64,000 bases of DNA from Scenedesmus sp. PABB004 (lineage: Eukaryota), in contig JABVCE010000012.1 of assembly GCA_014905635.1 (NCBI GenBank), positions 372,001 to 436,000 on the forward strand, written 5' to 3'. The notes under the pieces are model-generated. The model worked only from the letters and a program-made list of their open reading frames with translations, made no database searches and was not told where the DNA came from. The first letter of the stretch is position 1, and every line of letters begins with the position of its first letter. This document shows positions 1-54,384 of this stretch, piece by piece. Both the position numbers and the translations under genes were made by a program.

Positions 1-1905
1 TCTCCCTCGCCACGCACGCGCGCACCACCACGACGCTGGCAGCGCCCCCCGCACACGCACGCGCGCCCAGCCACGGGCCTGCCTCGCCTCGCCCTGGCCG
101 CGCTAGGCGGCGCGCTGCGCGTCGCCCTCGAGGGCGACGTCCGAGTCCCCCTCCCCCACCCCGTCCTCGTCCTCCTCCCAATCGTCCGAGTCCTCCCCCA
201 CCCCGTCCTCGTCCGCCTCCCCATCGCCCGAGCCCCCCTCCCCCTCCCCTCCTCCCCCTCCCCCTCCCCCTCCCCCTCGTCCTCGTCCTCCCCCTCGTCC
301 TCGTCCTCATCATCCGCGAACAAGCTGAGGAAGGCAAGGAAACGGGCAATCTCAGGGTGGTCGTCCGCCGACACGGGCTGCGCTCGGATCCACGCGACCA
401 CGGCCTCGTGGCCAAGGACAAACGCCCCGTCCTCGCACTGCATGCGCTGCCACGGGCAGCCGTTGGCACGCAGCCAGCGCAGCGCCTCCAGGTGCCCGTG
501 CGCAGCCGCCAGCCTGCACACCTCCTTGTTCCACGGCGCGGGCTCGTCCTGGGCGCGCACCCAGCGCAGCATCTCCAGGTCGCCGCGCTCCGCAGCGAAC
601 CTGCACACCCAGTCCCCGTCCCACGGCACCGGCGGCATCTGCGCGCGCGCCCAGCGCAGCACATCCAGCTGCCCGCCCGCGGCAGCTCCGCAACAAGCGT
701 TCCACAGGTCCAGCCCCTCGCCGCGCGCCCACTCCAGCACGGCGAGCTGGCCGGCGCGTGCTGCCTTGTGGACCCCGCCGTGCACGTTGCAGCCGGCGCC
801 GCGCAGCCAGGCCAGCCCCGCCACGTCCCCGCACGCAGCGCGCGCCCCGGCCAGCCGCGACTGCTGCCGCCCATCACCCTGCAACGCCCGCCACGCCTCC
901 TGCACCGCCGCCAGCGGCAGCTCGGGGCAGCGCAGCGAGACGACCGTGGCGCCACGGAAGCGCTCGTGCGCCGCCTTGCAGACCAGCTTGGGGCACCACG
1001 CCTGCAGGGCCAGCGGCAGGAGGTCCAGGACATGGAGCACGAGCGGCTCGGGCAGCTCCGGCAGCGGGCTGCTGGCGGCGCGGCGGGGCGAGGGCGAGCG
1101 GGGCGGGCGGAGGGCGGTCAGGCGCGCCTGCTGCCGGCGGTGGTGGTTCGTGGGCAGCGCGTGCCGCTCCAGGCAGCATCAGCCAGGGGGGCCCCAGCAG
1201 CAGCAGCAGCGGCCCCAACTCGGCGCCGCCTCGGCCCCCGCCGGTGCCTCGCCTGCTGCCGCTGCGGCCGCGCATGCGCTCGTGGTCGGCGCGGCGTGCC
1301 GCTTGCCCGCTGGCGCAGCAGACATGGTTCCACCTGACAGCCTGCGGGCCACCAGGGAGCAGCAGGCGGGGCGCCGGCAGCAGCGTGCGAGCGCGCGGGC
1401 GGCGTGAGCGCGGCAACAGCAGCGCGCGGCGCCCGCCCCCGCCGCCCCGGCGCGGCGGCGCGACGGCGGGCCTACCAGCGGCGCCCGGAGCGCGCAGAAC
1501 TAGCGGCGCACGCCACACGCCCGCCCGCCGCGCACCGCCGGTGCCCCCGCCGCCCGCAGCGGGCGCCGCGCAGCGCGCCCCGCCCGCCCGCCGCTGCCCT
1601 CCCCGCCTGCCCGCGCGCGCGGCTCGCCTGGCGCTGCGCTGGGCGGCACGGCCTAGTCACCACGCGCCCGCGGGTCCGCGCGCCCCGCCTGGCCAGGGGC
1701 GCGCCGCGGCGGCAGCGGGCGCTGCGATTCGAACGGCAGCGCGCGTGCGAGCGGGAGCTGCGAGGGCACTTCCACCGCTGTGTGCGTTTGCGTGTGGCAT
1801 GGGGCTGTGGGCGGCGGCTGTGGGCGGCGCGCGCGGGGGGGCTCCTCGATGGCGGCGCGGGCAGACAGCCGGGCGGCGCCGCCGCCCTGCGCCGCCGCCC
1901 TGCGA
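1..1905 (-). repeat. F-box/ankyrin cassette copy A (gene + conserved leader + downstream spacer; runs off the window start)
   Basis: Leader 1326-~1905 aligns by eye with the leaders of copies B-H (e.g. ctagtcacc...ccgcctggccaggggcgc). Bases 1-90 match the spacer at 4467-4550 downstream of copy B. Boundaries are approximate. Confidence 0.85.
103..1325 (-). pseudogene. F-box + ankyrin-like repeat protein, copy A, with acidic C-terminal tail; probably defective
   Basis: ATG at 1325 ([15 protein letters not shown]). Exon 2 from 1071 reads [30 protein letters not shown]...[16 protein letters not shown]...WIRAQPVSADD then DEDEDEGE. The family donor AG|GTGGGT reads AG|TTGGGG here. A 1-nt shift in a C-run near 246 separates the ORF from the TAG at 103-105. 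Confidence 0.7.
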
Positions 1906-2338
1906 GCGCCGCGTGGTGTTTCAAGCGGCGGCGCCGCAGCAACGCCGCGCCTCCAATGCGCGCACACCAGACACACGCCAGCCAGCCAGCCAAGCGCGCC
2001 CCCAGAGCTGCGCGCTCACTCGCGCTCGAGCAGCACGCCGTCGTCCGTCGAGGACGCAGGCGACGGCCGCCCCCCTGGCCGCTGCTGCTGCGACCCGCGC
2101 GCGGCCCCGTTGCCACCGCCGCCGCTGCCGCCGCTGGGCCGCTCGACCAGCTCCCCCTCCTCCGCCTCGCAGGAGGCCTGGCGGCTGGCGCCGGCGCCAG
2201 ACGCGGCGCTCGGCGGGCCCGGCTGCGCCGCGCGGTGCTGCGCCGCCACGATGCCGCCCCAGCCCGACGTGTAGACGCTCGACGGCGCCGCAAAAGCGGA
2301 CTGCTGCTGCTCGAGGCTGCCGGCGCTGCCGCTCGCGC

Positions 2339-2744
2339 TCAGCGCGCCGCCGCCGCCGCCGCCGCCGGCGCCGCCGGCAGCGCGCGCGCCTGCTGCGCGG
2401 CTGCCGCCGCCGCCGCCGCGCCGCCCGCCCCCGGCGCCGGCGACGCCGCGCCGGGCGAGTGCAGGGCGAAGAAGGGCCCGCTCTCCACGCGCGGCAGATC
2501 GACGAGCAGGAACTGATCACCCCCGCCCGACGGCGCCGCGCCCGGCGCGCCCGGCGCGCCCGGCGGACCGCCGCCGTCGCCGCCGCCGCCGGCGCTGGCC
2601 TGTGCGCGCGCCTGCGCCTGCGCCGCCTGCGCCGCCTGCGGCTTGACGCCCGGCATGGTGCTGGTGAGGGCGTGCAGGATGTCGATGCGCTGCTGCAGCT
2701 CCGCCACCTCCTGCAGGAACGCGCGGCGCCTGCGCAGCGCAGCA

Positions 2745-2788
<44 letters not shown>

Positions 2789-3857
2789 AGGCGCTCGTGC
2801 CGCGCCGCGGCGAGGCGAGCCGCGCGCGCACGCTCAGGCGCCGGCCGGCGCCGGCGCGGACCTGCGCTTGTGGTCGAGCAGCGACGCGGCGAAGCGCCCG
2901 ATGCTGCTGCGCGCGAATCGCCACGTCACAACGAGGGCCGTGACCGCTGCCAGCCCGCCGCGCAGCCAGCGCGACTCGCCGGGCTGCGCGGGGCGCGGCG
3001 CGCGGGGCGTGAGCGGGCGGGTGGCGCCGTCCCGCCCTGCCGCCGCGCCTGCCGGCCCGCCGCTGCGCCACCACCGCCACCGCCGCCGGCCCGATGCCGC
3101 ACCCCCAGGGGAACGAGACGACGGCGGGGCGGCGGCAGCGGCGGCGGCGGCAGCGCAGCGCAGCGCGCGCGCACGCGCCCACCGGCAGCGGTGCGACAGC
3201 GCGCGCGAGCTTGAACAGCGCCCACGCCGCGGCGCTGACCGCCGCCGCCTTGGCCAGCTGCGAGGCGCGCGCGGCGCGCGTGAGCGCGCGCCCGCGCGCC
3301 GCGCCATGCCCCCGCGCCGCGCCACGCGCGCCAGCGCGCGCCGCGCCCCCGCGCGCCGCACCTCATCTGCGATGTAGGCTGGAGGGAAGAGCTCCGGCTC
3401 GAGCTCGTCCACCAGCGACTCCAGGCGCTGCGCAGGGGGGCCGGCGGGGCGCGCGGCGGCGGCGCGGCGCGGCGCTCGGGCGGGCCGGGCCAGGGCAGCC
3501 AGCCCGGGCGCGGCGCGCTGCGGCGAGTGAGGGAGGGAGCGTGCGGCCGCGCCGCGCCGCGCGGCGCACCGCGGCCTCCAGCCGGAGCGCGGCGACGTGC
3601 TGCGCCACGGTCGCCGCGCCGCGGCGCAGCGCGCTGGCGTCGGTCGCGTGGAGGTCGTGCAGCTTCTGCTGCAGCGCCGACACCTGCGCGGCCGGGTCGG
3701 ACGCCTGAGCGCCCGCGCTCAGGGGGCGCCCCCGCCGCGCGAGGGCTGCCGCTGTCGGCGAGCGCTGTTGCCGCTGCTGCCGCTGCCGCCGCCGCGGCGC
3801 CGCCCCCACCTGCGCCTGCAGCTCCGCCACGCGAGGGCTGTCACTGGGGGCGTCCAT
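2339..3857 (-). CDS. Hypothetical multi-exon protein with coiled-coil segments and about 2 hydrophobic helices
   Basis: Exons bounded by GT/AG: MDAPSDSPRVAELQAQ | ASDPAAQVSALQQKLHDL | LVDELEPELFPPAYIADE | AVSAAAWALFKLAR | WLRGGLAAVTALVVTWRF | EVAELQQRIDILHALTST...stop at 2339. No family recognised. Confidence 0.55.
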
Positions 3858-4553
3858 GCGCGGCGACGTGGCCGCGACGCGGCCCCTGCGCGTGGGCCCA
3901 CGCACGCAACCCGCCGCGAGCTCGCCCCGCGCCCACGGGCCCCAACAGCGCCCCGGCGGTGGCGCCTTTGCGATCCCGACTGACCGCGCCCCCGCCTGGC
4001 CAGGGGCGCGCCGCGGGCGGGGGCGGGCGCCGGGCGGCGGCGGCGCGGTGCGTGCGGGCGCTGTGAGAGGCACGGCCGGTGCTGGTGTGTGCGTGCGGCA
4101 GGGGCGCTGAGGGGTACGGCTGTGGGCGGCGGGGCGGCGCGCGCGCTGGGGCCTCCTCGGCGGCGGCGCGGGCAGCCGGCCGGGCGCCTGCGCCCTGGGC
4201 CCCGCACCGCCACCCACGTGGCGCCGGGCTGGCGCGGCGCGGCGCGGCGACGTGCCGCCGTCGCCAGCGCTTGGCGCGGGAAGCTCGGCCCCCGCTCGTG
4301 CACTGCGTGCGCGGTCGGCCGCGGCCGGTTGCCAGCGCGCGCCGCCTCGCCGCCGCCAACTCCCCTCTCCCTCGGCACGCACCCGCGCACCACACGCCCC
4401 GGGCAGCGCCCGATGCACGCACGCGCGCCCAGCCAACTTCCCTCGCCGCCGCCAACTTCCCTCCCCTCTCCCTCGCCACGCGCGCGCACCAGGCCGCAGG
4501 CAGCGCCCCCCGCGCACGCGCGCGCGCCCAGCCACGGGCCTGCCTCGCCTTAA

Positions 4554-4589
4554 GACTACGATCAGGGCAAGCTTGCCCTGATCGTAGTC
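4554..4589. repeat. Perfect 36-bp palindrome
   Basis: GACTACGATCAGGGCAAG|CTTGCCCTGATCGTAGTC is self-reverse-complementary and lies about 10 bp beyond the copy B stop codon. Confidence 0.97.
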
Positions 4590-4598: not shown

Positions 4599-5897
4599 TT
4601 AATCGGGACCGTCCGAGTCGGAGCTGTCCGGCAGCTCCCGGATCCACGCGACCATGGCCTCATGGCCATTGCGGGCCGCCGCGCGCGCACACACGCCGCG
4701 TCGCCACGGGCAGCCGTTGGCGCGCAGCCAGCGCAGCGCCTCCAACTGCCCGCGCTCAGCGGCCGTCCTGCACACCCCCTTGTCCCACGGCGCGGGCTCG
4801 GCCTGGGCGCGTGCCCAGCGCAGCATCTCCAGGTCGCCGCGCCGCGCAGCCCAATAGCACACCTGGTCGCCCCATGGCAGCGGCGGCGTCTGCGCGCGCG
4901 CCCAGCGCAGAGCCGCCAGCTGCCCGCCCTCGGCTGCTCCGCTGCACACGCCCCGCAGGTCCAGCCCCTCGCCGCGCGCCCACTCCAGCACGGCGAGGTG
5001 CCCCTTCCGAGCCGCCGCCCAGCACGCCTCCTTGTTCCACGGCGGGAGCTTCGCCTGGGCGCGCAGCCAGCGCAGCACCTCCAGGTCGCCGCGCTCCGCA
5101 GCGATGTGGCACACGTGGTCACCCCAGGGCAGCGGCGGCGTCTGCGCGCGCGCCCAGCGCAGCACCGCCAGCTGACCGCCCGTGGCTGCTGCACTGCACA
5201 CGTCTCCCAGGCCCAGCTTCTTGACGCGCGCCCGGATGGAGTGGGCCCACTCCAGCACGGCAAGGTGGCCGTGCCGCGCTGCTGGCCAGCACACGCCGCG
5301 CACGTTGCAGCCGGCGCCCTCCAGCCAGGCCAGCCCCGCCACGTCGCCGCACGCAGCGCGCGCCTCCACCAGCGACCGCCGCCGCTCCGCTGCAATCTGG
5401 CTCCAGTCGCGGCGCCCCGCGTTCCGCCCCGAGCGGCGCCGCTCTGCCATGACTTGCAACGCTCGCCAGGCCTCCTGCACCGCCGCCAGCGGCAGCTCGG
5501 GGCAGCGCACCGAGAGGTGCTTGGCGCGGCGGAAGCGCTCGCGCGCCGCCTTGCAGACCAGCCTGGCGGTCCACGCCCGCAGGGCTGGCGGCAGGAAGCT
5601 CAGGACGTGGAGCACGAGGGGTTCGGGCAGGTCGCGCCACAGGCTGGCGGCACATCGCCGGCGGCGGAGCGGACGGGTGGGCGCGGGCGGTCAGGCGGCG
5701 CCTGATGCCGGCGGTGGTGGCTTGTGGGCAGCGCGTGCCGCGCCAGGCAGCACCAGCCAGGAGGGTGCCAGCAGCCAGCGGACCCACCTCGCCGCCGCCT
5801 CCGCGCCGCCAGGCACCTCTCCCGCCGCCGCAGCTCCTGCCGCGTGCGCGCTCGTGGTCGGCCCGGCGCGTCGCTTGCCCGCCGGCGCAGCAGACAT
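4599..5897 (-). CDS. F-box + ankyrin-like repeat protein, copy B (intact; duplicated a-b-c module block)
   Basis: Exon 1 5897-5788 (110 nt), GTGGGT..CAG intron, exon 2 5643-4599. Reads [31 protein letters not shown], then repeats of type AAxxGxLxxLxW and [16 protein letters not shown]. Confidence 0.85.
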
Positions 5898-6619
5898 GGT
5901 GCCGCCTGACAGCCTGCGGGCCAGCAGGGAGCAGCAGGCGGGGCACCGGCAGACGCGGGCGAGCGCGCGGGCGGCGTGAGCGCGGCAGCAGCAGCGCGCG
6001 GCGCCCTGCCCCTGCCCCGGCCCGGCGGCGCGGCGGCGGGCCTGCCAGCGACGCCCGGGCGCGCAGGCCCGGCCGCCCACGCGACATGCCCGCCCGCCGC
6101 GCACCGCCGGTGCCCCCGCAGCCCGCGGCGGGCGCCGCGCAGCGCGGCCCGCCCGCCGCCGCTGCCCTCCCCGCCTGCCCGCGCGCCCGGCTCGCCTGGC
6201 GCTGCGCTCGGCGGCACGGCCTAGTCACCAGGCGCCCGCACGTCCGCGCCCCGCCTGGCCAGGGGCGCGTCGCGGGCGGGGGCGGGCGCGGGGCGGCGGC
6301 GGCGCGGTGTGCGTGTGGGCGCTGTGAGGGGCGCGGCCGGCGCTCGTGTGCGTGTGCGGCAGGAGCGCTGAGGGTGGCGGCTGTGGGCGGCGGGGCGGCG
6401 CGCGCGGGGGCCTCTTCGGCGGCGGCGGCGCGGGCAGCTGGCCGGGCGGCGCCTGCGCCCTGGGCCCTGCACCGCCGCCCGCGTGCCGCTGCTGCCAGGC
6501 GGGCGCGGCGCGGCGACGTGCCGCCGCTGACAGCGCCCAGCGACGGCGCAAGAGCGCGACCCGCCCAGTTCCACTGCGTGCGCGGTCGGCCGGTTGCCAG
6601 CGCGCGCCGCACGCCGAGC

Positions 6620-11974: not shown

Positions 11975-13125
11975 ATGCAGGCCCGCCTGGCGGATGGCGC
12001 GAGCAGCCGCGGCAGCAGCTGCGCCGCCGGCGCGGCGCCGGCGCGGCCGCAGCAGCAGCAGCTCCCGCGCGCGGCGCCGTGGCGGCGGCGCGCCGTGCAG
12101 GCGATCCACGCCCTCCACATAGACCGCCGCCAGCACATGGAGCTCGCCTGGCAGCGCCAGCGCGAGCGCGAGGCGCGGCGCAGCGCGGCGCCGGTGCTGG
12201 GCCAGGTGGTCGAGGTGGAGGTGAGCAGCAGAGGCAGGGCCCCTGCCCGGGCGCGCGTGCCCGCGTGCCCGCGGCACGCCTGCGCCGCGACCCTCGCGCC
12301 GCGCCGCCGCCGCCGCCGTCGCCGCGCAGGACCTGGAGCACCTGGAGGCCCTGCTCGAGCGGTCGGGCAGCAGCCTCGTCGTCGTCGCCTTCTATACGCG
12401 CTCCTGCGGGGCCTGCAAGGCGCTGCTCGCGGAGTTTGCGGCGCTCGCGGAGGAGGCCAAGGCTGCGCAGGCGAGCGCGCGGCGGCCCACCCGCCGCTGC
12501 CCCTCTGCCCCCCTGTCCCGCGCTCTGCGGCGCCGGCTCAGCCCGCACGCCGCGCCGCGCCGCGCCGCGCGCGCACGCCGCCGCCCCCAGGTGCGCGCCG
12601 TGTTTGCGCGGCACAACCTGCTGGACGAGTTTGATGGCTGGAGCGACGTGAGCGTGTGGTACCGCGCGCGCGTGGCGCCGACGATCCTCTTCTTTGACGG
12701 CGGCGCAGTGGTGCGCGGCGCGGCGGCCGGCGGCGGGCGGGCGGGCGCAGCGCGCGCGGCGGCGGCAGCAGGGGCACGCGGCACACGGCAAAAGGGGCGC
12801 CGAGCGCCGAGCGCCGACGCGCGGGGCGCCGCCCCGCCGCCGCGGCAGGTCAAGCGCGTCACGCTGCACGACGTGCGCCGCATGGGCGAGCGCGCGCCCA
12901 CGGTGCGCGGCGGCCGCGCGGCGCTGCGCGGCGCGGGGCGGCGCGCTGCCGGGCCGCCCGCGCGCGCGCGGCGCGGCCGACCGCGCCCCTGCCCGCCGCC
13001 CGCGCCGGCCGCCGCCGCCCCCGGCGCGCCGCCAGATCCGCGCGGCGATGCAGCAGGACCTGCAGACCATGCGGCGCGTGTTCAGGCAGATGGTGTTTGA
13101 AAAGGCGCCCGGCGCGCGCACCTGA
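11975..13125 (+). CDS. Atypical thioredoxin-fold protein (CGAC motif), probably plastid-targeted
   Basis: Ala/Arg/Ser-rich N-terminus; exons LVVVAFYTRSCGACKAL and VAPTILFFDGG; ends VFEKAPGART*. Confidence 0.75.
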
Positions 13126-13442
13126 GCCGGCAGCGCGCGCGCGGCGCGGGGCGCGGGGCGCGCGCCGGCCCTTTGCTGGCGGCCCCCGCGCGGCGCCGCC
13201 GCGGCGGGGCGCGGGGCGGGGCGAGGCGGGGCGGGGCGGGCGGCCGCTGCAGCAGCGGGCCCGCCGCACGTGTACAACAGGCGACGAACGGGGCTGCGGG
13301 GGCGAATCAAGGCCGCAGCCGCCGGCGCCGCGGCGCACGTGTAGACTATCAGGCGCTGCCCCGCCGCCGCCGCGCCCCGACGGCGTGGCCAGGGCGGCGG
13401 GGCGCGGCGCGGCGCGGCGGGGCATCTCTTGGTGTGCGGGTC

Positions 13443-15201
13443 GGCGCGCGCTGGCAACCGGCCGACTGCAGTGCGCACCCTGGCGGGCCGCGCGCGCGCA
13501 TGCTCCCGCGCCGTCGCCGGGCGCTGGTGGCAGCACGCCTGGGCGGGCCTCGCGCACACGCTTCCACACTGCGGCGGCGGCGGCGGCGGCGGTGGCGGCA
13601 CGTCGCCGCGCCGTCCCGGCAGCCGCGGCGCGGGGGCGGCGGTGCAGGGCCCGGGGCGCAGGCGCCGCCCGGGCCGGCTGCCCGCGCCGCCGCCGAGGAG
13701 GCCCCCCGCGCGCGCCGCCCCGCTGCCCACAGCCGCCGCCCGCAGCGCCCCCTTGCCGCACGCACACGCACGAGCGCGGCCCTCACAGCGCCCGCACGCG
13801 CCGCGCCGCCGCCGCCCAGCGCCCGCCCCCCCCCCGCCCGCGGCGCGCCCCTGGCCAGGCGGGGCGCGGACCTGCGGGCGCCTAGTGACTAGGCCGTGCC
13901 GTCCAGCGCAGCGCCAGGCGAGCCGCGCGCGCGGGCAGGCGGGGAGGGCAGCGGCGGGGGCGGGCCGCGCTGCGTCCGCTGCGGGCGGCAGGGGCACCGG
14001 TGGTGCGCGGCGGGCGGGCGTGTGGCGTGTAACGCCGGACCTGCGCGCCCCTGGCGCCGCTGGCAGGCCCGCCGCCGCGCCGCCGCGCCGTGGGGCGGGG
14101 GCGGGCGCCGCGCGCTGCTGCTGCCGCGCCCACGCCGCCCGCGCGCTCGCCCGCTGCTGCCGGCGCCCCGCCCGCTGCTCCCTGGTGGCCCGCAGGCTGT
14201 CAGGTGGCACCATGTCTGCTGCGCCGGCGGGCAAGCGGCGCGCCGGGCCGACCACGCGCGCGCGGGCGGCGGCCGCAGCGGCGGCGGGCGAGGCGCCGGC
14301 TGGGGCGGAGGCGGCGCCGAGGTGGGTCCGCTGCCGTTGCAGCTGGTGACCCCTGGCTGGTGCTGCCTGACGCGGGCACACGCCGCCCACAAGCCACCGC
14401 CGCCGGCAGCAGGCGCCGCCTGACCGCGCTCGCCTGCCCGCCCCGCCCGCCGCGCTCCGCCGCGCCAGTAGCGTCTGGCGGGACCTGCCCGAGCCCCTCG
14501 TGCTCCACGTCCTGAGCCTCCGGCTGCCGGCCCTGCAGGCGTGGGCCGCCAGGCTGGTCTGCAAGGCGGCGCGCGAGCGCTTCCGTGGCGCCACGGTCGT
14601 CTCGCTGTGCTGCCCCGAGCTGCCGCTGGCGGCGGTGCAGGAGGCCTGGCGGGCGGTGCAGGGTGATGGGGAGCGGCAGCAGCGACTGGCCAGCACGCGC
14701 GCTGCGTGCGGCGACGTGGCAGGGCTGGCCTGGCTGCGCGGCGCCGGCTGCGACATGGTAGTCCACGGCAGGTTCGATGTGGACAGCGTGTGCTGGACAG
14801 CAGCAAAGCGTGGGAAGGTCGCCGTGCTGGAGTGGGCGCGGGGCCAGGGGCTGGACCTGTGGAACGCTTGTTGCGGAGCTGCCGCGGGCGGGCAGCTGGC
14901 GGCACTGCGCTGGGCGCGCGCGCAGGCGCCGCCGCTGCCGTGGGGTGACTTTGCGTACATGGTGTGCTGGCACGCTGCGCGGCGCGGCGACGTGGAGATG
15001 CTGCGCTGGGCGCGCGCCCAGGCCGAGCCCGCACCGTGGAACGAGGAGGTGTGCCGCATCGCTGCTCATTTTGGGCAGTTGGAGGCGCTGCGCTGGCTGC
15101 GCGCCAACGGCTGCCCCTGGCGGCGCAGCGACTGCGAGCGCGTGGCGGCAGACAAAGGGCACGACGACGTGGTTGCTTGGGTTCGGGCGCAGCCCGAGTG
15201 A
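13443..15201 (+). repeat. F-box/ankyrin cassette copy C
   Basis: Starts at gcgcgcgctggcaaccggccga. The leader has acceptor-like CCCCTGGCCAG (~13858) and GGCCCGCAG (14196) before the ATG at 14212. Confidence 0.88.
14212..15201 (+). CDS. F-box + ankyrin-like repeat protein, copy C (intact)
   Basis: Exon 1 14212-14321 ([18 protein letters not shown]..), intron 14322-14468 (GTGGGT..CTGAC..CAG), exon 2 14469-15201 in frame: [16 protein letters not shown]...WVRAQPE*. Confidence 0.87.
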
Positions 15202-15454
15202 GCCTGCGCGAGCCACTGCTGCCGGTGCCAGCGCGCGGGGCGTGCCTGACGTCGGGCAACCAAGTTGGACCGCCGCCACCGAACCCCTCCGCCGCGGCGC
15301 CGCCAGTTGCGCCCAGCAGCCGTGCGTGGGGGCCGCTCGCGCGGCGCCGGATGCGAGCTCTGCAGCGGCGTTGGGCCGGCGGCGCGCCGGTGCCAGCGCC
15401 AACCGCCCCGCGATGGCCGCCGGACAACCCGATGGCGCCTGAGCGCGCCGCCGC

Positions 15455-16103
15455 ATGAGTGAGTGCAGAGCTGGCACTCAGCGAGACGCGCGCCGGGGCA
15501 GGCCGCCGCGGCACCGCAACCGCCGCGCCGCCGAAACAGCCGCTGCCGCCGCTGCCGCCGCAGGAGTTGGTGCCCCTGCGAGGGCTGCCCTGCTGCTGCT
15601 CCTGCTCCTTCCAGGCCTCGGTGCGTGCCGCGGCGAGAGCAGCAGCGCACGCGCTCCGCCGCCCGACGCGCGCCGGGCCCGGCGTGCCGCGCCCGCAGGC
15701 GCGCGCCGCGTGCGCGGCGGCCGGCGCCTGACGCAGGAGTCGTTCAGCACGGTGCGCGGGCACCAGCCGAGCGGGCTGTACGCGGTCACGAACCAGGGCG
15801 CCGAGGGGGCGTCGGCCGCCAACACGCGCGGCGTGCGCTACAACGCGGGTGCGGCGGCGGCCGGCGGCACTGGCGACCTGCCGTTGCGCCGCGTTGACCG
15901 CGCTGGCCGCCCCGCCCGCGCGGCAGGCAAGATTATCGTCGCTGACGAGGAGGTCTACCCCACCAGCCGCGCCGCGGCCAGCACGGGCGGCTCGGCCGAC
16001 GCGCCCGGCGCGCTCGTGCGCTCGGGTGCGCGGCGCCGCGCGGGCGCGGGCACGCGGGCGCGGGCGCGGTCCGCCGCGCTGCCCTCGGGCTCCCCTACAC
16101 ACG

Positions 16104-16173
<70 letters not shown>

Positions 16174-16590: not shown

Positions 16591-16652
16591 AGCGTCGCCG
16601 GGCGGGCGGCGGGCGCGGCACGCGCGTTTTTTGGGGGCGGCACTGCGCACGC

Positions 16653-16724
16653 GGCCGGCGCCTGAACACGTGGCACGGCCGGCGCCTGGACACGTGGCGC
16701 GGCCGGCGCCTGGACACGTGGCGC
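16653..16724. repeat. 24-bp tandem repeat x3, each containing ACACGTGGC
   Basis: GGCCGGCGCCTGRACACGTGGCRC x3; a 16-bp GAGCAGCATGCACTGT repeat follows at about 16790-16830. Confidence 0.9.
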
Positions 16725-18850: not shown

Positions 18851-18853
18851 AAC

Positions 18854-23884: not shown

Positions 23885-23920
<36 letters not shown>

Positions 23921-23921
23921 C

Positions 23922-23952
<31 letters not shown>

Positions 23953-35756: not shown

Positions 35757-38700
35757 TCAGAGCACGCGCGTATTGTATGAGCGGCAGGCGGGGCAGGCGT
35801 GGTAAACATAGTGGTAGGGCGCCGCGCCGACGGCGCCGCAGTCCTGGCAGAGCACGGCCTGGGTGCGGCCCGCGTACGCGGGCGGCAAGCTCGCCGCCTC
35901 TGCGGCGAGGAGGGAGTCGATCATCTGGAAGTACATGCCCATGTTGCCGATCGACTTGCAGCACAGCGGGCAGGTGTAGGCGTAGCGCGCGTACTGCGCG
36001 AAGCACGCGCTGTGCAGGAAGTGCCCGCACGGGAGCTCCTTGATCGGCGTCGCCGAGTCAAAGAGGTACTCGTGGCACACGGGGCAGTTGCCCTCCATCG
36101 CGCGCTCGCGGCAGGTGTGGCTCTCAAACAGGGTGAGGCTCATGCACGCGTTGCACTGCATGCAGTGGAAAAAGTCGACGCCGAGGCCCTTGCCGCGCCG
36201 GCAGACGTTGCAAAAGGGGCAGTGGTAGATGTCCCGCCCCGGCGCGTCGTCAAAGAGGTGGCAGATGCCGCAGTAGTAGCGCGACAGGCACGACCCGCAC
36301 GACCCGCACGACCCGCCGACCGGCTGCCGCGCGCCGCAGTGCATGCAGACCATCTCCGCCACGGCGTAGCGGTCGAGGCGGTGCCCCGTCGCCTCGTCGT
36401 GGCACAGCCTGCGCGGCGACGGACGCGCGGCGGCGCGGCGCGCGCGGCGACGGAAGCGCGGTCGGTGGCGAGATCGGCGGCGGGGCAGCGCGGCGCGCGG
36501 CGCGCGGCAGGGCGTGCGCCGGCCGCGGATGGGCGGGCGCGCACCGGCAGGTGAAGACCTTGCCGCAGCACGGCGCCACGAGCTGCGCGGAGCGCCGGTA
36601 GTGCTTGCAGCCGAGCACCCCGGCCGCGGCGTCGGCGTAGGTCTTGTGCGCCTCGCCCACCGCGGCGCCGCCGCCCGGCGCCGCCGGCTCCTGCTGCTGC
36701 TGCTGCTGCTCGCCCGCCGCCGCGGCGCCGGCGCGCGCGCCAGCGTCGCTGCCGTGGTGGTGGTGGCAGCAGCCGCCGCCGGCGGCCGCGCCGCCCGCTG
36801 CCGCTGCCGCGCCGCCGCCGCTGCCGCCGGCCGCCGGCGCCTCTGCGCCGCGCGCGCCGCCGCCGCCGCCGGACGCCGCCGCGCCGCCGCCGCCGCCTGC
36901 GGCGCGGTTCATGCGGCGCTGCTGCGCGACGATGTAGCGGCTGACCATGATGTTCTGGATGAGGTAGGCCTTGCGGTCGGGCTCGAGGCTCGCGTCACTG
37001 CTCACGCGCCGGATCGCGGCCTCGAGCTGCGCCTGGTTGATGTTGAAGATCTCCTCCCAGCCGGGCGTGTAGGCAGCGCTCTCGGCGACCGTGCCGGAGA
37101 CCTCGGTCTGCGTCGCGAGCGCCGCCGCCGCGGCCGACGCAGACGCCGCCGCGCCCGGGCCGCGCGCCGCGCCGCCGGCGCCGCCGCCGGCGTCGCCGGC
37201 GCCGGGCGCGGAGAGGTACTGCGCGACCGCCGCGAGGCCCTCCTGCTCGGCCGCCGCGGCCGCCGCGGCCGCGGCCGCGCCGCCGCTCGGCGCGGGTCGA
37301 GCACCGCGCGCGGCGTCGTCGCGGCGCCGGCGCCGGCGCCGGCGCCGCCGGGGGCCTGCACCGCGTCGAGCCACTGGTCAAACATGGTGTTCTTGGTCGC
37401 CTCGCGCAGGCTGCCCATCATGGCCTCCTTCTCCTCCTCGCTGAACGACCCGGTCACCCACGGCAGCAGCGCCTGGGTGGGTGCGCGGCGGCGGCGCGGC
37501 GGTGGGTGCGCGGCGGCGCAGCAGCGCGCGGCGGCGGCAGGCGGTGGCGGCGGCGGCGGGCGGCGGGCGGCGGCGGCGTGCCGCTGCTCCGCGGCGCACC
37601 TGCAGCACCTCCGCGCCGGTGCGGCCGATGATGACGCCCACGAGGTGCTGCTGCTCCGCGGGCGTGAAGTGCTCGCTGAAGAGGGGCCATAGCTCCGCCT
37701 CCTCCGCGCGCACGTGCGTCTCGAGGCTCGCGCGCACCGCGGCGCACATGCGGCGCAGCGTGAGCGCGAGCTCGCGCGCCTCGCCCGCGCTGCCCGACGC
37801 CTTGAGCCGGCCGATGACGCGCTCGAGGTCGACAAACAGCTGCTCCTCCTGCGTTGAAGCAGGCGCGGTGGCGGCGGCGGCAGGCGCGGGCGGCAGGCGC
37901 GGCGGCAGGCGGCGGCGCGGGCGGCGCGTGAGCGCAGCGCGGGCGCTCGAGAGTAGCACGGCCGCGGCAGCCGCGGCGCGCATGCCCGGGCCCCCGCCGC
38001 GCGCCCGCGTCCGCAGTGTCCACACAGCGCCCGCCGCACCTGCTCGTGGTCCAGCGTGTACGCGTGGCTCACGTTGTGCAGCGCCTCCTTTGACTCGAGG
38101 GCCGGGAACACGATCTCGTCCTCCGCCTTGCTGTGCGCGCGGTAGATGCCCCACAGGAACTGGAAGCGCCCGTCGAGCTGCTGCAGCGACAGCGACACGC
38201 CGCGCAGCAGCGCCGCGCCGCTGCCGGCCGCGCCGACCGCGCCGCCGCTGCTCGATGCAGGCGGCTGCTGCTGCGGCGGCTCGGGCGGCTGCCCCTGCGG
38301 CGTGTCCGCTGCAGGCGCCTGCTGCTGCTGCTGCTGCTGCTGCGGCTCGGCCGCCGGCTGCGGCCCGCCGGCCGCCTGCTCCTGCTGCTGCTGCGCCGCC
38401 TCGCCCGGCTGCGCCTGCTGCTGCTCACGCGCCTCCGCCGCCTCGAGTGCCTCGCAGCTCGACAGCACCGCGTGCTCCAGCGCCGCCGCCTCAGCCTCGA
38501 GCTGCCGCAGCTCGCGGCGCAGCGCCTTGTGAAACTGAAAGATGTGGTCGATCGGGCTGTGCCCCGGCACGCCCTCGTCGCCAGCAGCGGGCGCGGCGGG
38601 CGCCGCCGGCTGCGCGCCCGCGCCTGCGGGCGCCGCCGCGGCGCCGCCGCCGCCCGCCGCTCCGCCGCCAGCCGCGGCCGCGGCGTCCCGCTGCTGCGGT

Positions 38701-41113
38701 GCGCCCCCCGGCGCCTGGGCGCCCTCCAGCTGCTGCTGCTGCTCCTGCTCCGGCTCGCCGCGCGGCAGGCTGCCCGCGGACGCCAGCGCCGCCGCGGCGC
38801 CCTCCGCCGCGCCAGCGCCCGCGGCGGCCGCCGCAGCTGCGGCCGCCGCGGCGGTGGGCGTCGCGTCCGCCGAGCTGCTCTCCGGCGCGTCGCCGAGGCG
38901 CTGCCGCTTGCGCGGCGAGCCGCTGCCGCCGTCGGAGGCCTGCCGGATGAGCCGCAGCTCGCAGGTGTCGTTGGCGAAGTAGCAGGGGTCGTGCATGTTG
39001 CGCACGACCGCCGCCGCCGCCGCCGCATCGGCGGCATCGACGTCGTCGCCGCCGCGCGGCGCCGCGCCGGCGGCGGCGGCGGCCTCGAGGCTCGCCACGC
39101 TGCCGCAGGAGCGGCAGAGCGCCTCGATGACCGCCGCCGGCACGACGCCCGCGAGGTGCGCGTGCGTGTCGGGCGCGCCCTCGGCGCCGAGGCGCCCCGC
39201 CGCCGCGTCGGGCAGCGCCGGGGCTGCCGCCGCGCCGGCAGCGCCGCCGGGCACGGCCGCGTCGGGCAGCGGCCAGCGGCCGCGCTGCGCCCAGCGCAGC
39301 AGCAGCTCCAGGAGCTGCTGGTCCACCTGGGGCGCGCCGAGGCGCAGGTTTGACAGCATGCCCTCCGCGTCCTCGTCGCTCAGCTTGCTCAGCAGCCACG
39401 GCAGCACGCGCTCGAGCAGGCGCAGCGGCATCGCGCGCAGCGTGTGCCACACCATGCCGCGCTGCGCGTCGGGCCCGAGCCGCGCCGCGAGCAGCGGCAG
39501 CACCTGGCGCTCCTCGCGCTGCATGTGCCCGCCGATCGCGTCGCACACGTCGCGCGCGGTGCTGACGAGCTTGGCGAGCAGGCCCGACACGTCGCGCGTG
39601 CGCCCGCGGCGCACAAACGCGCGCACGTCAGCGAGCAGGCGGCCGAGCTCCTCGAACAGCGCCAGCTCGCTCCCGTGCTCCGCCTGGCACGCGCTGCACG
39701 TCGCGAGCAGCGCGCTGAGCGCGCTCGGGGCGAGCCCGCTCACGCGCAGCACGGCGGGGAACATCACCTGCGGCGGCGCGCGGCGCGGCGCGCGCGTCCG
39801 AGGTTGAGTCGCAGCCGGCGCTGGCGGCCCGCGTCGCGCGGTGTGCGCGGGGCGGCGCGGCGCGGCCGCACCTCCTCCTCGCTCGCTGTGTGGAACATGC
39901 AGACGCTGCGCAGGAAGCGGTGGCGCTCGACCAGCCCCGCGAGCTGCCCCGGCGTGACGCCCGCCTGCGCCTGCAGCGCGGCCGCCTCGGCCGCAAACAC
40001 CTCGAGCGCGCCGCGGATGCTGTGGTGGAAGAGCACGATGCACTGCAGGCGGCGGAGCGGGGCGGCGGGCGTTTTGGTCAGCCCCGCATGCCGTGCAGCC
40101 ACGCCGGCGGGCGCGAGCGGGCGCGCAGCTGCGGCCGGCGGCCAGGCGCGGCCGCGCGCACCCGCAGCGGCGGCCACGCCTCCATCGCGGGCGCGCCGCC
40201 GGGCGTGTCCGCCGCCGCGCCGCCGCTGCCGTCGGTGCCGCCGCCGTCGTCCGCGGCCGCGGCGGCCGCCGCCGCGAGCGCCTGCTGCCCGGCCGACGCG
40301 GCAAAGGGGCAGATGACGAGGCTGCTGGCGCCGCCGCCGCCGCCCGCCGCCGCCGCGCCAGCCGCCGCCGCCGCGCCAGGCGCCGCCGCCGCGTGCGCGG
40401 CCGGCGCGCCGGCGCCGGGGCCGGGGGCGCTGGGGCTGAGCCACGTGACGAGCAGCGCGAGCAGCAGGCGGTCGGGGATGACGTCGCGCAGGTGGTCCAT
40501 GAGCTTCACGAGCTCGGGCAGCGGGACCATGGGCTTGAGCCAGCCCAGCACGCGCTCCACGGTGTCGAGGGGAATGCAGTAGAGGAACTGCGCGACCAGC
40601 TCCGCCTGCTCCGCGTGGCTGAAGTGCTGCAGCAGCAGCGGCAGCAGCTGCGCCTCCTCCTTGGCGAGGTGCTTGCGCAGCGTGATGTGGATCTCCTCGA
40701 CCTTGCAGATCAGCTGCCTGCGCGAGCACAGCGGCGGCGGTGTCGGGCGCGACGGCGTCGGACGCGCGGCGGCGCCGCCGCTGCCCCGCGTGCTGGGGCC
40801 GACCGGGGCGCCGCGCGCGAGCCGGCGCGGCGGCGGCGCGCCTGATCGTCGCCGTGCGCTCGGCGCCCTCCTGAGTGAGCGCCGACGTGAGCAGGCTGGC
40901 CAGGTGCTCAAACAGGTACTCCTGCGAGCCCCCGGCGCGGCGCGGCGGCGGCGCGGGTCAGCGCGGGGGGCGGCGCAGCGCGCGGGCGCCAGCGCTCGCG
41001 CTGCTGCTGCTTGCAGGACGCGGCGCGCGCGCCTCGTCCTGGTGCTCCACGCTGTACGCCGACGTCACGTTCTTGACCTTGGTGTCCAGCGCCGGGTAGA
41101 CGACCTGGACGGC

Positions 41114-41148
<35 letters not shown>

Positions 41149-41547
41149 CGGCGCGCTCAGCAGCAGCGGCCGGCCCGGGCACGCCCGGCCGGCGGCGAGC
41201 CCTGCGCACAGCGCGACGCCGCGCGGGGGCGGCGCTGGGGGTCCCACCTCGTCCTCCACGCTGGAGTGGTACTTGTAGACCTGCTCAAGGAAGCGGTAGC
41301 GCTCCTTGAGGTGCGCGAGCCGCTGCAGCAGCTCCGCCTCGCTGCCCGCCTCCAGCTCCAGGGCCCAGCGCGACAGGTTGTCGAGCTCGGTGCGTATGGA
41401 CTCGTGGAGGTGGCCGTAGAGGAAGTTGATGGGCGGGTGCGCGGAGGACGGCGAGCCATCGCCGACGTCTGCTGCTGCCGCTCCCCCCGCGCCTCCAGCG
41501 CCCCCCAGCGCCTCGGCGGGCAGGCGGGGCGCCAGCGCAGCCGCCAT
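35757..41547 (-). CDS. BTS: BRUTUS/HRZ-like iron-sensing E3 ligase (hemerythrin domains + CHY zinc finger + RING + zinc ribbon)
   Basis: [105 protein letters not shown]-terminal [12 protein letters not shown]. Confidence 0.95.
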
Positions 41548-46256: not shown

Positions 46257-46288
<32 letters not shown>

Positions 46289-50526: not shown

Positions 50527-51535
50527 TCACTCGGGCTGCGCCCGGATCCACGCGACCACGGCCTCGCGGCCATGGTCCGCCGCCACGTCCTCGCACTCAG
50601 CGCGCCGCCACCGGCAGCCGTTGGCGCGCAGCCAGCGCAGCACCTCCAGGTGCCCGTTCGCAGCCGCAAATTGGCACACCTTGTCGCTCCACGGCGCGGG
50701 CTTGGCCTGGGCGCGCGCCCAGCGCAGCACCTCCAGGTCGCCGCGCCGCGCAGCGACGTGGCACACCCCGAACAGCGAGTCACCCCAGGGCAGCGGCGGC
50801 GCCTGCGCGCGCGCCCAGCGCAGCACCGTCATGCGCCCGCCCTCGGCTGCCCCGCGGCACACGTCCTGCAGGTCCAGCCCCTCGCCGCGCGCCCACTCCA
50901 GCACGGCGAGCTGGCCGGCGCGCGCTGCTGCCCAGACCATGCCGTCCACCATAATCCCTCTGCCTGTGTCATACACGCGGCCCATGTCGCAGCCGGCGCC
51001 GCGCAGCCAGGCAAGCCCCGCCACATCGCCGCACGCCGCGCGCGCCCTGGCCAGCCGCAGCTGCTGCTGCCCCGGGCCGTCCTGCGCCGCCCGCCAGGCC
51101 TCCCGCACCGCCGCGAGCGGCAGGTCGGGGCAGCGCAGCGAGACGCGTCTGGCGCCGCGGAAGCGCTCGCGCGCCGCCTTGCAGACCAGCTTGGCGGCCC
51201 ATGCCTGCAGGGCCGGCGACCAGAGGCCCAGGACGTGGAGCACGAGCGGCTCGGGCAGCTCCGGCAGCGCGCTGCAGGCGCGCGGCGGGGGCGGGCAGGC
51301 GGGCGGGGCGGGCGGCGAGCGGTCAGGCGGCGCCTGCTGCTGGCGGCGGTGGCTTGTGGGCGGCGCGTGCGGCGCCGGGCAGCACCAGCCAGAGAGCACC
51401 AGCAGCAGCAGCAGCGGACCCACACCTCGCCGCCGCCTCCACCCCAGCCAGCGCCTCGCCTGCCGCTGCTGCGGCCGCCGCGTGCGCGCTCGTGGTCGGC
51501 CCTGCGTGCCGCTTGCTCGCCGGCGCAGCAGACTT
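50527..51535 (-). pseudogene. F-box + ankyrin-like repeat protein, copy G; family start codon mutated
   Basis: ACC-ATG-TCT of other copies reads ACC-AAG-TCT (51535-51533). Exon 2 51271-50527 is still open to WIRAQPE*. Confidence 0.65.
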
Positions 51536-52317
51536 GGTGCCGCTTCTGACAGCCTGCGGGCCACCCGGGAGCAGCAGGCGGGGCACCGGCAGCGGGCAAG
51601 CGCGCGGGCGGCGTGAGCGCGGCAGCAGCAGCGCGCAGCCCCCGCCCCCGCCCCAGCGCGGCGGCGCGGCTGCGGGCCCGCCAGCGGCGCCCAGGGCGCG
51701 CAGGCCCGGCGGCCCACGCGACACGCCCGCCCGCAGCGCACCGCCACAGCCCCGGCCGCCCGCAGCGGGCGCCGCGCAGCGCGGCCCGCCCGCCGCCGCT
51801 GCCCTCCCCGCCTGCCCGCGCGCGCGGCTCGCCTGGCGTTGCGCTGGGCGGCACGAGCTAGTCACCAGGCGCCCGCAGGTCCGCGCCCCGCCTGGCCAGG
51901 GGCGCGCCGCGGGCGGGGGCGGGCGGTGCGATTCGAACGGCGGCGCGCTGTGAGGGCTGTGATCACGGACTGAGGACTGAGGGCGGCGGCTGTGGGCGGC
52001 GCGGCATGCGGGGGGCCTCCTCGGCGGCGCGGGCAGCCGGCGGGCGCAGCGCCTGCGCCCTGGGCCCTGCACCACCGCCCCCGCGCCGCGGCCGCTGCGG
52101 GCGCGGCGCGATGACGTGCCGCCGCTGCCGCCACCGCAGTGCTCGGCGGCGTGGGAGCGTGTGCGCGAGGCCCGCCGAGGCGGCGCGGTCGGCCGGTTGC
52201 CAGCGCGCGCGCCGCTTCGCTCCGGCCCGCTGCTGCCAGCGCCAACTCTCGTCGCCACGCTGTCACCACGCCGCGCACAGCTGGCTGCCTCCCGCCACGG
52301 GCACCAAAGCCGGCGGC

Positions 52318-53536
52318 TCACTCAGGCTGCGCCTGGATCCACGCGAGCATGGCCTCGTCGCGACGCCACGCCGCCGAGCGCTCGCACTTGGCGCGCTCCC
52401 ACGGGCAGCCGTTGGCGCGCAGCCAGCGCAGCGCCTCCAGGTGCCCGTTCGCAGCCCCCCCCCCCCCCCCGCACACCCACTCGTTCCACGGCGCGGGCTC
52501 GCCCTGTGCGCGCGCCCAGCGCGGCATCTCCAGGTCGCCGCGCCGCGCAGCGTAGTAACACACGTGGGTGCCCCACGGCAGCGGCGGCGTCTGCGCGCGC
52601 GCCCAGCGCAGCACCGCCAGCTGACCGTGCCAGGCTGCTCCGGTGCACACGCCCCGCAGGTCCAGCCCCTCGCCGCTCGCCCACTCCAGGACGGCGAGGT
52701 GCCCCTTCCGAGCCGCCGCCACGCACGCCCGCTCGTCCCACAGTGCAGGCTCGGCCTGGGCGCGCGCCCAGCGCAGCATCTCCAGGTCGCCGCGTTCCGC
52801 AGCGAAGAGGCACACGAGGTCGCCCAGCGCCAGCGGCGGCGTCTGCGCGCGCGCCCAGCGCAGCACGCACAGCTGCCCGCCCATGGCTGCGCCCTCACAC
52901 ACAAGCTGCAGGTCCAGCCCCTCGTCGCGCGCCCACTCCAGCACGGCGAGCTGGCCGGCGCGCGCTGCGCCCAATGCAACAAAGGCCAGGTCGTCGCAGC
53001 CGGCGCCGCGCAGCCAAGCCAGCCCCGCCACGTCGCCACACGCTGCACGCGCTTCCGCCAGCCGCGACTGCTGCTCCTCATCAACCCCCGCTGCCCGCCA
53101 GGCCTCCTGCACCGCCGCCAGCGGCAGGTCGGGGCAGCGCAGCGAGACGCGTCTGGCGCCGCGGAAGCGCTCGCGCGCCGCCTTGCAGACCAGCTTGGCG
53201 GCCCACACCCGCAGGGCCGGCGGCAGGAAGCTCAGGACGTGCAGCACGAGGGGCTCGGGCAGCTCCGGCAGCGGGCTGCTGGCACGGGCGGGGGCAGGCA
53301 GGCGGGCAGGGCGGGCGGCGAGCGGTCAGGCGGCGCCTGCTGCTGGCGGCGGTGGCTTGTAGGCGGCGCGTGCGGCGCCGGGCAGCACCAGCCAGGGGGT
53401 GCCAGCAGCAGCGGCAACGGACCCACCTCGGCGCCGCCTCCGCCCCAGCCAGCGCCTCGCCTGCCGCCGCTGCGGCCGCCGCGCGCGCGCGCGTGGTCGG
53501 CCCGGCGCGCCGCTTGCCCGCCGGCGCAGCAGACAT
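52318..53536 (-). CDS. F-box + ankyrin-like repeat protein, copy H (intact; duplicated a-b-c block; in-frame G16 tract)
   Basis: Exon 1 53536-53427, exon 2 53278-52318; ends WIQAQPE*. Confidence 0.87.
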
Positions 53537-54384
53537 GGTGGTGCCGCTTCTGACAGCCTGCGGGCCACCAGGGAGCAGCAGGCGGGGCACCGGCAGCGTG
53601 CGGGCGAGCGCGCGGGCGGCGTGAGCGCAGCAGCAGCGCGCGGCGCCCGCCCCCGCACTTGCGCGGCGGCGCGGCGGCGGGCCTGCCAGCGGCGCCCGGG
53701 GCGCGCAGGCCCGGCGGCCCACGCGACACGCCCGCCCGCAGCGCACCGCCACAGCCCCGGCCGCCCGCAGCGGGCGCCGCGCAGCGCGGCCCGCCCGCCG
53801 CCGCTGCCCTCCCCGCCTGCCCGCGCGCGCGGCTCGCCTGGCGTTGCGCTGGGCGGCACGAGCTAGTCACCAGGCGCCCGCAGGTCCGCGCCCCGCCTGG
53901 CCAGGGGCGCGCCGCGGGCGGGGGCGGGCGCGGGGCGGCGGCGGCGCGTGCGGGCGCTCGTGTGCGCCGCAGCCGGCGCTTGTGTGTGTGCGGGTGTGTG
54001 TGGCAGGGGGGCTGAGGCGGCTGTGGGTGGCGGGGCGGCGCGCGCGGGGGCCTCCTCGGCGGCGGCGCGGTCAGCCGGCCGGCGGCGCCTGCGCCCTGGG
54101 CCCCGCACCGCCGCCCGCGTGCGGCCGCTGCCGGGCGGCGCGGCGTGGTGACGTGCTGCCGCCAGCGCCCGGCGACGGCGCGGGAGCATGTGCGCGCGGC
54201 ACGCCCGGGCGCGCTGCTTGCGCGGTGGGGCAGGTAGCAAAGAGTTGTGGGTTGCCGCTCGCCCCGACCCCTCGGGCGCCGCCAACTCCCTTCTCCTCCG
54301 CCGCACGCGCTCTTCCGCCGCCGCCACCGCCGCCACTGCCGCCGCAACCGCCTGCCGCCACACACGCGAAGCACGGCGCCGCGC

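Follow-up and report, generated by a model that had tools for sequence, protein, structure and literature searches.

The 64-kb stretch of Scenedesmus sp. PABB004 DNA analysed here (hereafter the window) contains eight copies of a gene cassette, labelled A to H, whose product combines an F-box-like N-terminal module with a series of ankyrin repeats. The cassette is a discrete unit that is copied at the DNA level to at least 36 places; in the window, all eight copies retain both the intron of the gene and 0.6-0.75 kb of the DNA upstream of it, which upholds the DNA-level copying proposed in a preliminary description of this stretch. We consider it probable that the cassettes form a young, lineage-specific birth-and-death family of substrate receptors for SKP1-cullin-F-box (SCF) complexes, spread by such copying. 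In this family, the conserved N-terminal F-box would dock on SKP1, and the ankyrin groove, whose exposed positions differ between copies, would pick the target; each protein would thus act as an interchangeable SCF substrate receptor, and the copies together as a diversifying recognition set, subject to birth and death. The unit would spread by short-range duplicative insertion, with neighbouring copies as templates for recombination or repair copying; gene conversion would follow, and selection would keep only those insertions that lie behind the 3' ends of genes.

The repeated unit and its eight copies

The G+C content is about 80% throughout the window, which contains 235 stop-to-stop frames of at least 200 amino acids; for the genome as a whole, the accessible text of a comparative report (PMC12571836) gives 39.8 Mb in 77 scaffolds, 78.5% GC, 7,092 genes, and 1.31% repeats. 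When the window is compared with itself by BLAST, its long repeats are the cassette family, eight copies and two leader fragments, and no other long repeat family appears in this comparison. The unit is 1.5-1.8 kb long and consists of a non-coding leader of 0.59-0.75 kb, a first exon of 110 nucleotides (nt), an intron of about 147 nt, and a second exon. DNA identity between copies is 79-92%: C aligns with the seven others at 79-85% over 1,520-1,704 columns, and E with F at 92.4% over 1,486 columns. An assembly artefact is ruled out, the copies differing by 8-21% and having unique flanks. The preliminary description had placed the eight copies and two fragments where BLAST now finds them, and the alignment bears out its start codons, 110-nt exon 1, GT..AG intron, and exon 2. 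The stop codon it assigned to A at position 103 belongs to another frame, the exon-2 frame being open to the window edge, and the leader length it gave, about 0.6-0.8 kb, agrees with the measured range at the lower end and exceeds it at the upper. The copies and fragments are as follows:

1-1915, minus strand: cassette A; leader about 1326-1915, start codon at 1325; Ank_4 match of 33.8 bits.
3984-4265, minus strand: orphan leader fragment (5' part of the leader) just 3' of B; 84% identity to C 13588-13869.
4599-6610, minus strand: cassette B; intact.
13530-15201, plus strand: cassette C; intact; exon 1 14212-14321, intron 14322-14468 (147 nt), exon 2 14469-15201.
17093-18841, minus strand: cassette D; frameshifted in a poly-G run; homologous stop at 17121, shifted frame ending at 17093.
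26893-28455, plus strand: cassette E; intact; leader 26893-27489, exon 1 27490-27599, intron 27600-27752 (153 nt), exon 2 27753-28455.
33282-33546, minus strand: orphan leader fragment just 3' of F; 92.7% identity over 206 columns.
33616-35264, minus strand: cassette F; 1-nt deletion in exon 1; one extra ankyrin repeat.
50527-52247, minus strand: cassette G; AAG in place of the start ATG; in tandem behind H.
52318-54287, minus strand: cassette H; intact; three extra ankyrin repeats and a poly-G run.

The 3' edge of the unit is sharp: similarity ends 5-10 nt past the stop codon in C, D, E, G, and the pair F/H, that is, in five different flanks. The 5' edge is ragged, the leaders of A, E, and F being short (about 0.6 kb) and those of B, C, D, G, and H extending 100-150 nt further. 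The motif AGTTGGC stands just upstream of the leaders of D, G, and H and of both fragments, with three such edge motifs at 4355-4457, upstream of the fragment at 3984-4265; of its eight occurrences in the window, seven come shortly before a long leader or a leader fragment, and since these belong to the cassette edge, AGTTGGC is rejected as a general 3'-end signal. At two loci, similarity extends into the downstream flank. The region 33280-33754 (the 3' flank of F with its fragment) matches 51979-52456 (the 3' flank of H with the start of the G leader) at 86% over 484 columns; F therefore either possessed the beginning of a tandem partner at one time or was copied along with it. Short stretches are also common to the flanks of A and B. 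Taken with the two loci that carry donor flank, the sharp 3' edge common to the copies and the ragged 5' edge resemble an element with a defined terminus more than random segmental duplication, and they make duplicative insertion of the unit likely.

Exon 1, which is 110 nt long in B, C, E, and H, encodes a basic, Ala-rich peptide and joins exon 2 in phase; exon 2 encodes the F-box module and five to nine ankyrin repeats. Indel lengths are multiples of three in all nine distinct cases of exon 2, but in only 10 of 53 leader indels and 2 of 10 intron indels, in agreement with the non-coding status that had been assigned to both. The same exon 1-exon 2 junction is found in most of the deposited paralogue models, which are predictions; P0002 reads through the intron. 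As the intron is kept in all eight copies and no A-run follows the 3' edge, a retrocopy or processed gene is rejected. An acceptor-like CCCGCAG|G is invariant 17-20 nt before the start codon in all eight copies. A scan of the whole window against Rfam gives no match; the leader therefore does not represent a known RNA family. In Chlamydomonas the poly(A) signal is TGTAA, which does not mark 3' ends here: it occurs three times in 64 kb where 1.8 are expected, and the poly(A) signal of PABB004 probably differs from that of Chlamydomonas. Two of the three occurrences are in C (14028) and D (18287), at equivalent positions of the leader.

As assembled, B, C, E, and H are intact, and A, D, F, and G are defective. 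A has lost its splice donor (GT to TT) and also the stop codon that follows AQPE in other copies, so that its frame continues through an acidic and Gly-rich tail past the window edge. This tail (1-360, minus strand) is long, rich in Asp/Glu and Gly, and lies beyond the usual stop; the paralogues P0002, P0004, P0123, and P0127 likewise end in acidic tails after AQP. Since A and several paralogues carry such tails, the short ending of C to H, AQPE followed by a stop, may be a derived truncation. B has three more ankyrin repeats and, following the F-box, an insert of 18 residues. A perfect palindrome of 36 bp lies at 4554-4589, 10 nt downstream of the TAA stop of B; its GC content is lower than that of its surroundings, and it has TTAA on each side, one of them containing the B stop codon. 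Its origin could be a footprint or a very small palindromic insertion. In E, the F-box lies at about 27769-27888 and the ankyrin repeats at about 27994-28452. The 5' half of F is nearly identical to E, and both E (27462-27489) and F have an additional in-frame ATG 27 nt before the common start, which would add MARRLSGGA at the N-terminus. D (about 17,290) and H (about 52,440) share a poly-G run at one hypervariable site in the second-last ankyrin repeat, where H reads GGGGG and D is frameshifted; this may be a real G-tract hotspot or a homopolymer assembly error.

The F-box-like module and the ankyrin repeats

The encoded protein is firmly an ankyrin-repeat protein. Ank_4 scores above the Pfam cut-off (22.7 bits) in seven of the eight copies, D reaching 14.1 bits; the AlphaFold model of exon 2 of E has a predicted local distance difference test score (pLDDT) of 91.3 and a predicted template-modelling score of 0.82, and its best Foldseek matches are ankyrin proteins (DARPins, Espin, ankyrin), with E-values down to 1.3e-5.

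The N-terminal module is accepted as F-box-like at the level of sequence profiles. Searched against 1.84 billion representative sequences, a profile built on the N-terminal 80 residues of all eight copies retrieves 48 proteins at E<=1e-3. Thirty-six of the hits, namely 35 remote ones and the divergent paralogue P0129, were scanned with Pfam: 17 match F-box or F-box-like at E<=0.01, six of the 36 score above cut-off, and three are unrelated proteins (DUF4116, phage tail); in the five cases compared, the Pfam match overlaps the profile-matched stretch. Against solved F-box domains, a broader profile of the family matches FBXO2 (2e31_A, an entry of the SKP1 complex) at E=0.001 over profile positions 8-49, a D3/MAX2 homologue at E=0.004, and FBXO42 at E=0.008. 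AlphaFold places helices at residues 8-16, 20-30, and 32-37, with pLDDT values of 71-90. The N-terminal module is kept, 40 of the 99 columns of the eight-copy alignment being invariant, and the succession of F-box, LPLAAVQEAW helix, and linker is common to many of the proteins found by the profile search. The preliminary description had named the product an F-box and ankyrin protein; the ankyrin part of this holds by Ank_4 in seven of eight copies, and the F-box part holds by profile homology and fails by single-sequence Pfam search.

Conservation changes along the unit. Mean pairwise identities for the leader are 82% (distal), 92% (middle), and 91% (proximal); exon 1 has 90.5%, the intron 85%, the F-box part 87%, and the ankyrin part 77-80%. 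Conservation is highest in the 400 nt that precede the start codon. Which copy is nearest to a given one shifts between 100-column blocks along the unit, and blocks of 99-100% identity join different pairs (G-H, E-F, C-D, A-D, D-F); these mosaics point to gene conversion or recombination among the copies. It had been stated that non-coding DNA is conserved as well as coding DNA: the leader is indeed better kept than the ankyrin part, though this is at least partly due to gene conversion. Between E and F, which show this exchange most clearly, the rates of nonsynonymous (dN) and synonymous (dS) substitution are 0.007 and 0.018 in the F-box part and 0.181 and 0.117 in the ankyrin part; with all pairs considered, the F-box part has a dN/dS of about 0.9 and the ankyrin part one of about 0.8, values that are rough, as G+C at third codon positions is near saturation and dS therefore unreliable. 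The variable columns recur in each repeat, at the residues flanking a conserved Cys and at the AAxxG pair. In ankyrin repeats, these positions face the binding groove. The conserved F-box, the hypervariable ankyrin positions, and the decaying copies fit the recognition repertoire that had been suggested for this family.

Copy number, placement, and spread

In total there are at least 36 copies: 33 modules in deposited models, among them C, D, E, G, and H, together with A, B, and F, which are in no retrieved model. The 33 comprise 30 modules of at least 99 bits, found in 21 deposited models with the N-terminal profile over the fetched proteins, to which were added the weaker modules P0172 and P0130 and, read from the sequence, P0177, a cassette without the F-box part. 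At least 33 of the 36 lie on the window's own contig of 1,235,393 bp; P0002 is on a contig of 434 kb, P0172, a fusion with BMS1, on one of 796 kb, and P0123 is unplaced. Nine locus-tagged models run from HT031_003954 to HT031_004038, a span of 85 tags, which, at the genome's average of 5.6 kb for each model, we estimate at 0.4-0.5 Mb. A third contig carries two divergent relatives (38-44% identity). The preliminary description had called the cassette apparently mobile, which is not borne out by a distribution with at least 33 of 36 copies on one contig and tagged models within 85 tags; the single local cluster that it had set against mobility comes close to what is found, save for the two copies on other contigs.

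An old tandem array that was broken up by block duplications, loss of redundant host copies, and gene conversion, with no insertions at all, would also leave most copies on one contig. The tandem pair H-G, the relics of tandem partners behind B and F, the evident gene conversion, and the small, repeat-poor genome of the accessible report text (PMC12571836) are in keeping with such an array. It would, however, require many independent deletions that end within about 10 nt of a cassette stop, and the self-comparison of the window contains no relic of a duplicated host gene; nor does it predict the copies behind host genes on two other contigs or the two features of placement described below, the absence from head-to-head gaps and the sense orientation in tail-to-head gaps. 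We regard a broken array as very improbable.

Within the window, the copies stand singly between unrelated host genes and in both orientations, with one tandem pair (H-G), as had been described. The host genes in front are TatD, a thioredoxin-like gene (C), RNF10, FZR2/CDH1 (E), a hemerythrin/CHY/RING gene (F), and an M18 aspartyl aminopeptidase (H). The long leader of B begins 17 nt after the TatD stop and that of D about 10 nt after the RNF10 stop; the leader of H begins about 105 nt after the aminopeptidase stop, and that of E about 120 nt after the FZR2 stop. With the cassettes ignored, the gaps between host genes are three tail-to-head, four tail-to-tail, and five head-to-head, on a strand map that is a crude six-frame codon-usage scan trained on the models mapped in the window, and in which the blocks 28.5-33.2 kb and 41.9-49.9 kb may each contain more than one gene. 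All three tail-to-head gaps hold a sense cassette (B, C, F), three of the four tail-to-tail gaps are occupied (D, E, H+G), and none of the five head-to-head gaps, which hold divergent promoters, contains a cassette; six of seven gaps behind host 3' ends versus none of five head-to-head gives a hypergeometric p of about 0.008. A lies behind a minus-strand gene at 2041-3780, and its other neighbour is beyond the window. Co-orientation with the host is automatic in tail-to-tail gaps, and only the three tail-to-head cases are informative on orientation.

This placement recurs in the deposited models, many of which join a host gene to the cassettes behind it. Along its full length, cassette E is matched at 100% identity by P0170 ('FZR2', 916 amino acids), and the aspartyl aminopeptidase P0167, the thioredoxin-like 4 P0174, and the rnf10 P0175 map in the window at 98-100%. 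The four chimeric models of the window, in which the host stop codons are bypassed, are:

11975-16805: thioredoxin-like 4, C, and the downstream gene.
18830-22320: rnf10 and D.
23336-28452: FZR2 and E.
50530-57576: aspartyl aminopeptidase, H, and G.

On the contig, at least 15 models have a host coding region before one to four cassettes on the same strand. Among them are models with the names FZR2, aspartyl aminopeptidase, rnf10, thioredoxin-like 4, SLC4A1AP, fbiC, and BGL1A, with BMS1 on another contig; by Pfam, the hosts in nine chimeric models have FHA, RRP36, rhodanese/lipase, and WD40 domains, and source names and precomputed domains add, among others, HDAC-like, GH1, fbiC/radical SAM, DUF1295, and BMS1 hosts. 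These host-cassette chimeras are an annotation problem, as they will mislead surveys of orthology and domain architecture.

In another reading, the cassettes would be promoterless and expressed from the host in front, whether by a read-through transcript that carries them as its second cistron or, as the chimeric models imply, by splicing onto the host protein as a C-terminal F-box/ankyrin extension. Wherever the neighbour in front is known, the cassette has its orientation, and the long leaders begin 10-17 nt after the TatD and RNF10 stops; the invariant CCCGCAG|G is apparently used by deposited models, which have LSGGAM or LSGGTM before the start, and polycistronic mRNAs occur in green algae, according to the accessible text of one report (PMC7896298). 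Yet three of the co-oriented cases are tail-to-tail and hence automatic, so that only three of three are informative, and in the polycistronic pairs of that text the upstream open reading frame (ORF) has a median of 444-600 nt and the gap between ORFs is 212-260 nt, whereas here the hosts exceed 1 kb and the gaps are 0.6-0.8 kb. Moreover, the fused models must skip the host stop, the FZR2 model leaving its conserved C-terminal frame in doing so, and the 400 nt before the start are the most conserved, as expected of a promoter and 5' untranslated region (UTR). Because open frames are everywhere in DNA of 80% GC, where gene prediction can join any two co-oriented genes, the fusions are most simply prediction artefacts; of the explanations considered here, host-driven expression is the least probable.

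The 5' part of the leader may act as the 3' end of the preceding gene, since long leaders follow host stops, the relics consist of the leader's first 200-300 nt, and the unit has no 3' UTR. In the family of copied SCF receptors that we favour, the preceding gene would probably take its 3' end from the first 150-300 nt of the leader, while the cassette, having no 3' UTR of its own, would use the sequence behind it. This can be extended to a complete scheme, which we hold to be rather unlikely as a whole: a eukaryotic cassette of a new kind, with a promoter and no 3' UTR, would be copied, without terminal inverted repeats (TIRs) or target-site duplications (TSDs), to a place just after the stop of a co-oriented host; its own first 150-300 nt would become the 3' end of the host, and the displaced host 3' UTR would serve the cassette; and it would spread mainly to neighbours until nearly all permissive gaps in the region of the copies are filled, yielding a self-propagating, diversifying set of SCF receptors.

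The same edges could be those of a non-autonomous mobile element, mobilised in trans by a Helitron-like rolling-circle, Crypton-like, or unknown system, which makes mostly short hops behind gene 3' ends and carries the F-box/ankyrin gene as cargo. It would account for a discrete unit at no fewer than 36 sites beside unrelated genes, two of them on other contigs and one of these two behind BMS1, for a 3' edge common to five flanks with ragged or truncated 5' ends, and for the two loci with donor downstream sequence (F with the H-G junction, and the similar flanks of A and B), which resemble terminus bypass; in addition, the permissive gaps of the window are near saturated in a genome for which the accessible report text gives 1.31% repeats (PMC12571836). 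The hallmarks looked for in the window are nevertheless missing, as had been noted for transposase, reverse transcriptase, TIRs, and TSDs. At the cassette ends, the only candidate TIRs are GC-rich low-complexity pairs. The longest word shared by the two junctions averages 7.1 nt for the same copy and 7.8 nt for mismatched pairs, giving no sign of a TSD; the two edges of B share AGCTCGG and those of E share TTGTCGCC, but these look-alikes do not exceed chance matches in length and are rejected. Pfam finds no transposase, reverse transcriptase, integrase, or Rep family among the 285 window ORFs of at least 160 amino acids; the only helicase in the window is of the UPF1-like AAA_11/AAA_12 kind, and the window has no ORF of Rep or Pif1 type. 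No CTRR-type 3' end is seen by eye in the alignment of the 3' edges, and a 6-bp stem inside the last codons is part of the conserved coding sequence. With these negatives, and with at least 33 of the 36 copies on one contig, a mobile element is a real though minor possibility.

Several points weigh against the family of SCF receptors spread by DNA-level copying that we prefer. Single sequences stay below the Pfam cut-offs for F-box (PF00646) and F-box-like (PF12937), which are 20.5 and 24.3 bits: three of the eight copies reach E-values of 0.014-0.049 at 14-15.6 bits, and the other five give nothing. The isolated 80-residue N-terminal model has weak Foldseek matches, with a best E-value of 1.5; F-box chains are 7 of the 27 matches listed (of 31 weak ones), the best being 2e32_A, with a root-mean-square deviation of 2.5 A over 34 columns. 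Docking on SKP1 would follow from homology at the profile level, and expression, transcript ends, and the intron are predicted from sequence and gene models. The gap statistics depend on a rough codon-usage map trained on this same window. With defects in four of the eight copies, simple decay may account for part of the family, and the defects of D and F, which lie in or beside G runs, could be assembly errors. The dN/dS of about 0.8-0.9 fits relaxed constraint as well as a mixture of purifying and diversifying selection. Finally, repair copying alone leaves the same 3' edge in five flanks unexplained, an edge that resembles that of an element with a defined terminus.

The neighbouring genes, from the same Pfam scan of 285 ORFs, have domains of TatD, S24 peptidase, thioredoxin, CDC20/FZR WD40, a hemerythrin/CHY/RING/zinc-ribbon E3, UPF1-like helicase, M18 aminopeptidase, and CBM20. 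A large gene at 35760-41220 (minus strand) combines hemerythrin, CHY zinc-finger, RING, and zinc-ribbon domains, which we take to be the domain set of BRUTUS-like iron-sensing E3 ligases. Tandem repeats of 5 bp at 25888-26034, inside the FZR2 gene region, appear as a ladder of offset BLAST hits. A giant-virus insert is rejected: the hosts are housekeeping genes that contain introns and have the same GC content, the 285 ORFs contain no viral hallmark domain, and the match to a Pandoravirus protein spans the ankyrin repeats only. With copies that fill almost every gap behind a gene, the window offers a good system for the study of local gene-family spread without recognisable transposon machinery.

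Comparison with known systems

A limited search of the literature on PABB004 and on F-box, ankyrin, and green-algal genes found no described precedent for the family or its arrangement; its separate features have counterparts in several systems. Gene-carrying non-autonomous Helitrons copy at the DNA level, keep introns, lack TIRs and TSDs, and have a defined 3' end. The cassette is like them in all these respects and in that some copies carry extra flank; it is unlike them in having no visible 5' TC, 3' CTRR, or convincing terminal hairpin, in having no Rep/helicase partner in the window, and in being one intact gene with its upstream region rather than a patchwork of fragments. With the polycistronic loci of green algae, as far as the accessible text describes them (PMC7896298), the cassettes share a downstream ORF close behind a co-oriented gene in a chlorophycean alga, but the host ORFs and spacing of the cassettes are several-fold longer.

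The named relatives of the protein are from Raphidocelis subcapitata (UniRef 'F-box domain-containing'), Acanthamoeba (F-box/ankyrin), Balamuthia, brown algae, Phytophthora, and Pandoravirus (an ankyrin protein), with 33-45% identity in the repeat region and E-values of 1e-40 to 1e-57. AnkB of the intracellular bacterium Legionella is likewise a protein with F-box and ankyrin repeats. The PABB004 set resembles these protist, giant-virus, and bacterial proteins in domain order and in the ankyrin subtype '..LE.L.WLR..GCPW'; it differs from them by its extra exon 1 peptide and by the helical linker LPLAAVQEAW, which is otherwise found only in proteins from the profile search. To our knowledge, none of the named relatives sits in such a cluster.

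The F-box superfamilies of nematodes evolve by birth and death. The same is described, in the accessible text of two reports (PMC3719486, PMC7829749), for the lineage-specific F-box superfamilies of plants, in which the F-box is conserved and the substrate-binding domain evolves fast. The PABB004 family is like those of plants and nematodes in that the N-terminal module is kept while the C-terminal repeats vary, in its clustering, in its frequent pseudogenes, and in its expansion in one lineage. It is unlike them in its partner domain, which is ankyrin and not F-box-associated (FBA), kelch, or leucine-rich repeat (LRR); in its copies, which are interleaved singly with housekeeping genes behind their stop codons rather than arrayed; and in its upstream non-coding DNA, which is better conserved than the coding sequence. 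F-box families that expand and diversify are generally regarded as systems of recognition, with viruses or other intruders among their possible targets.

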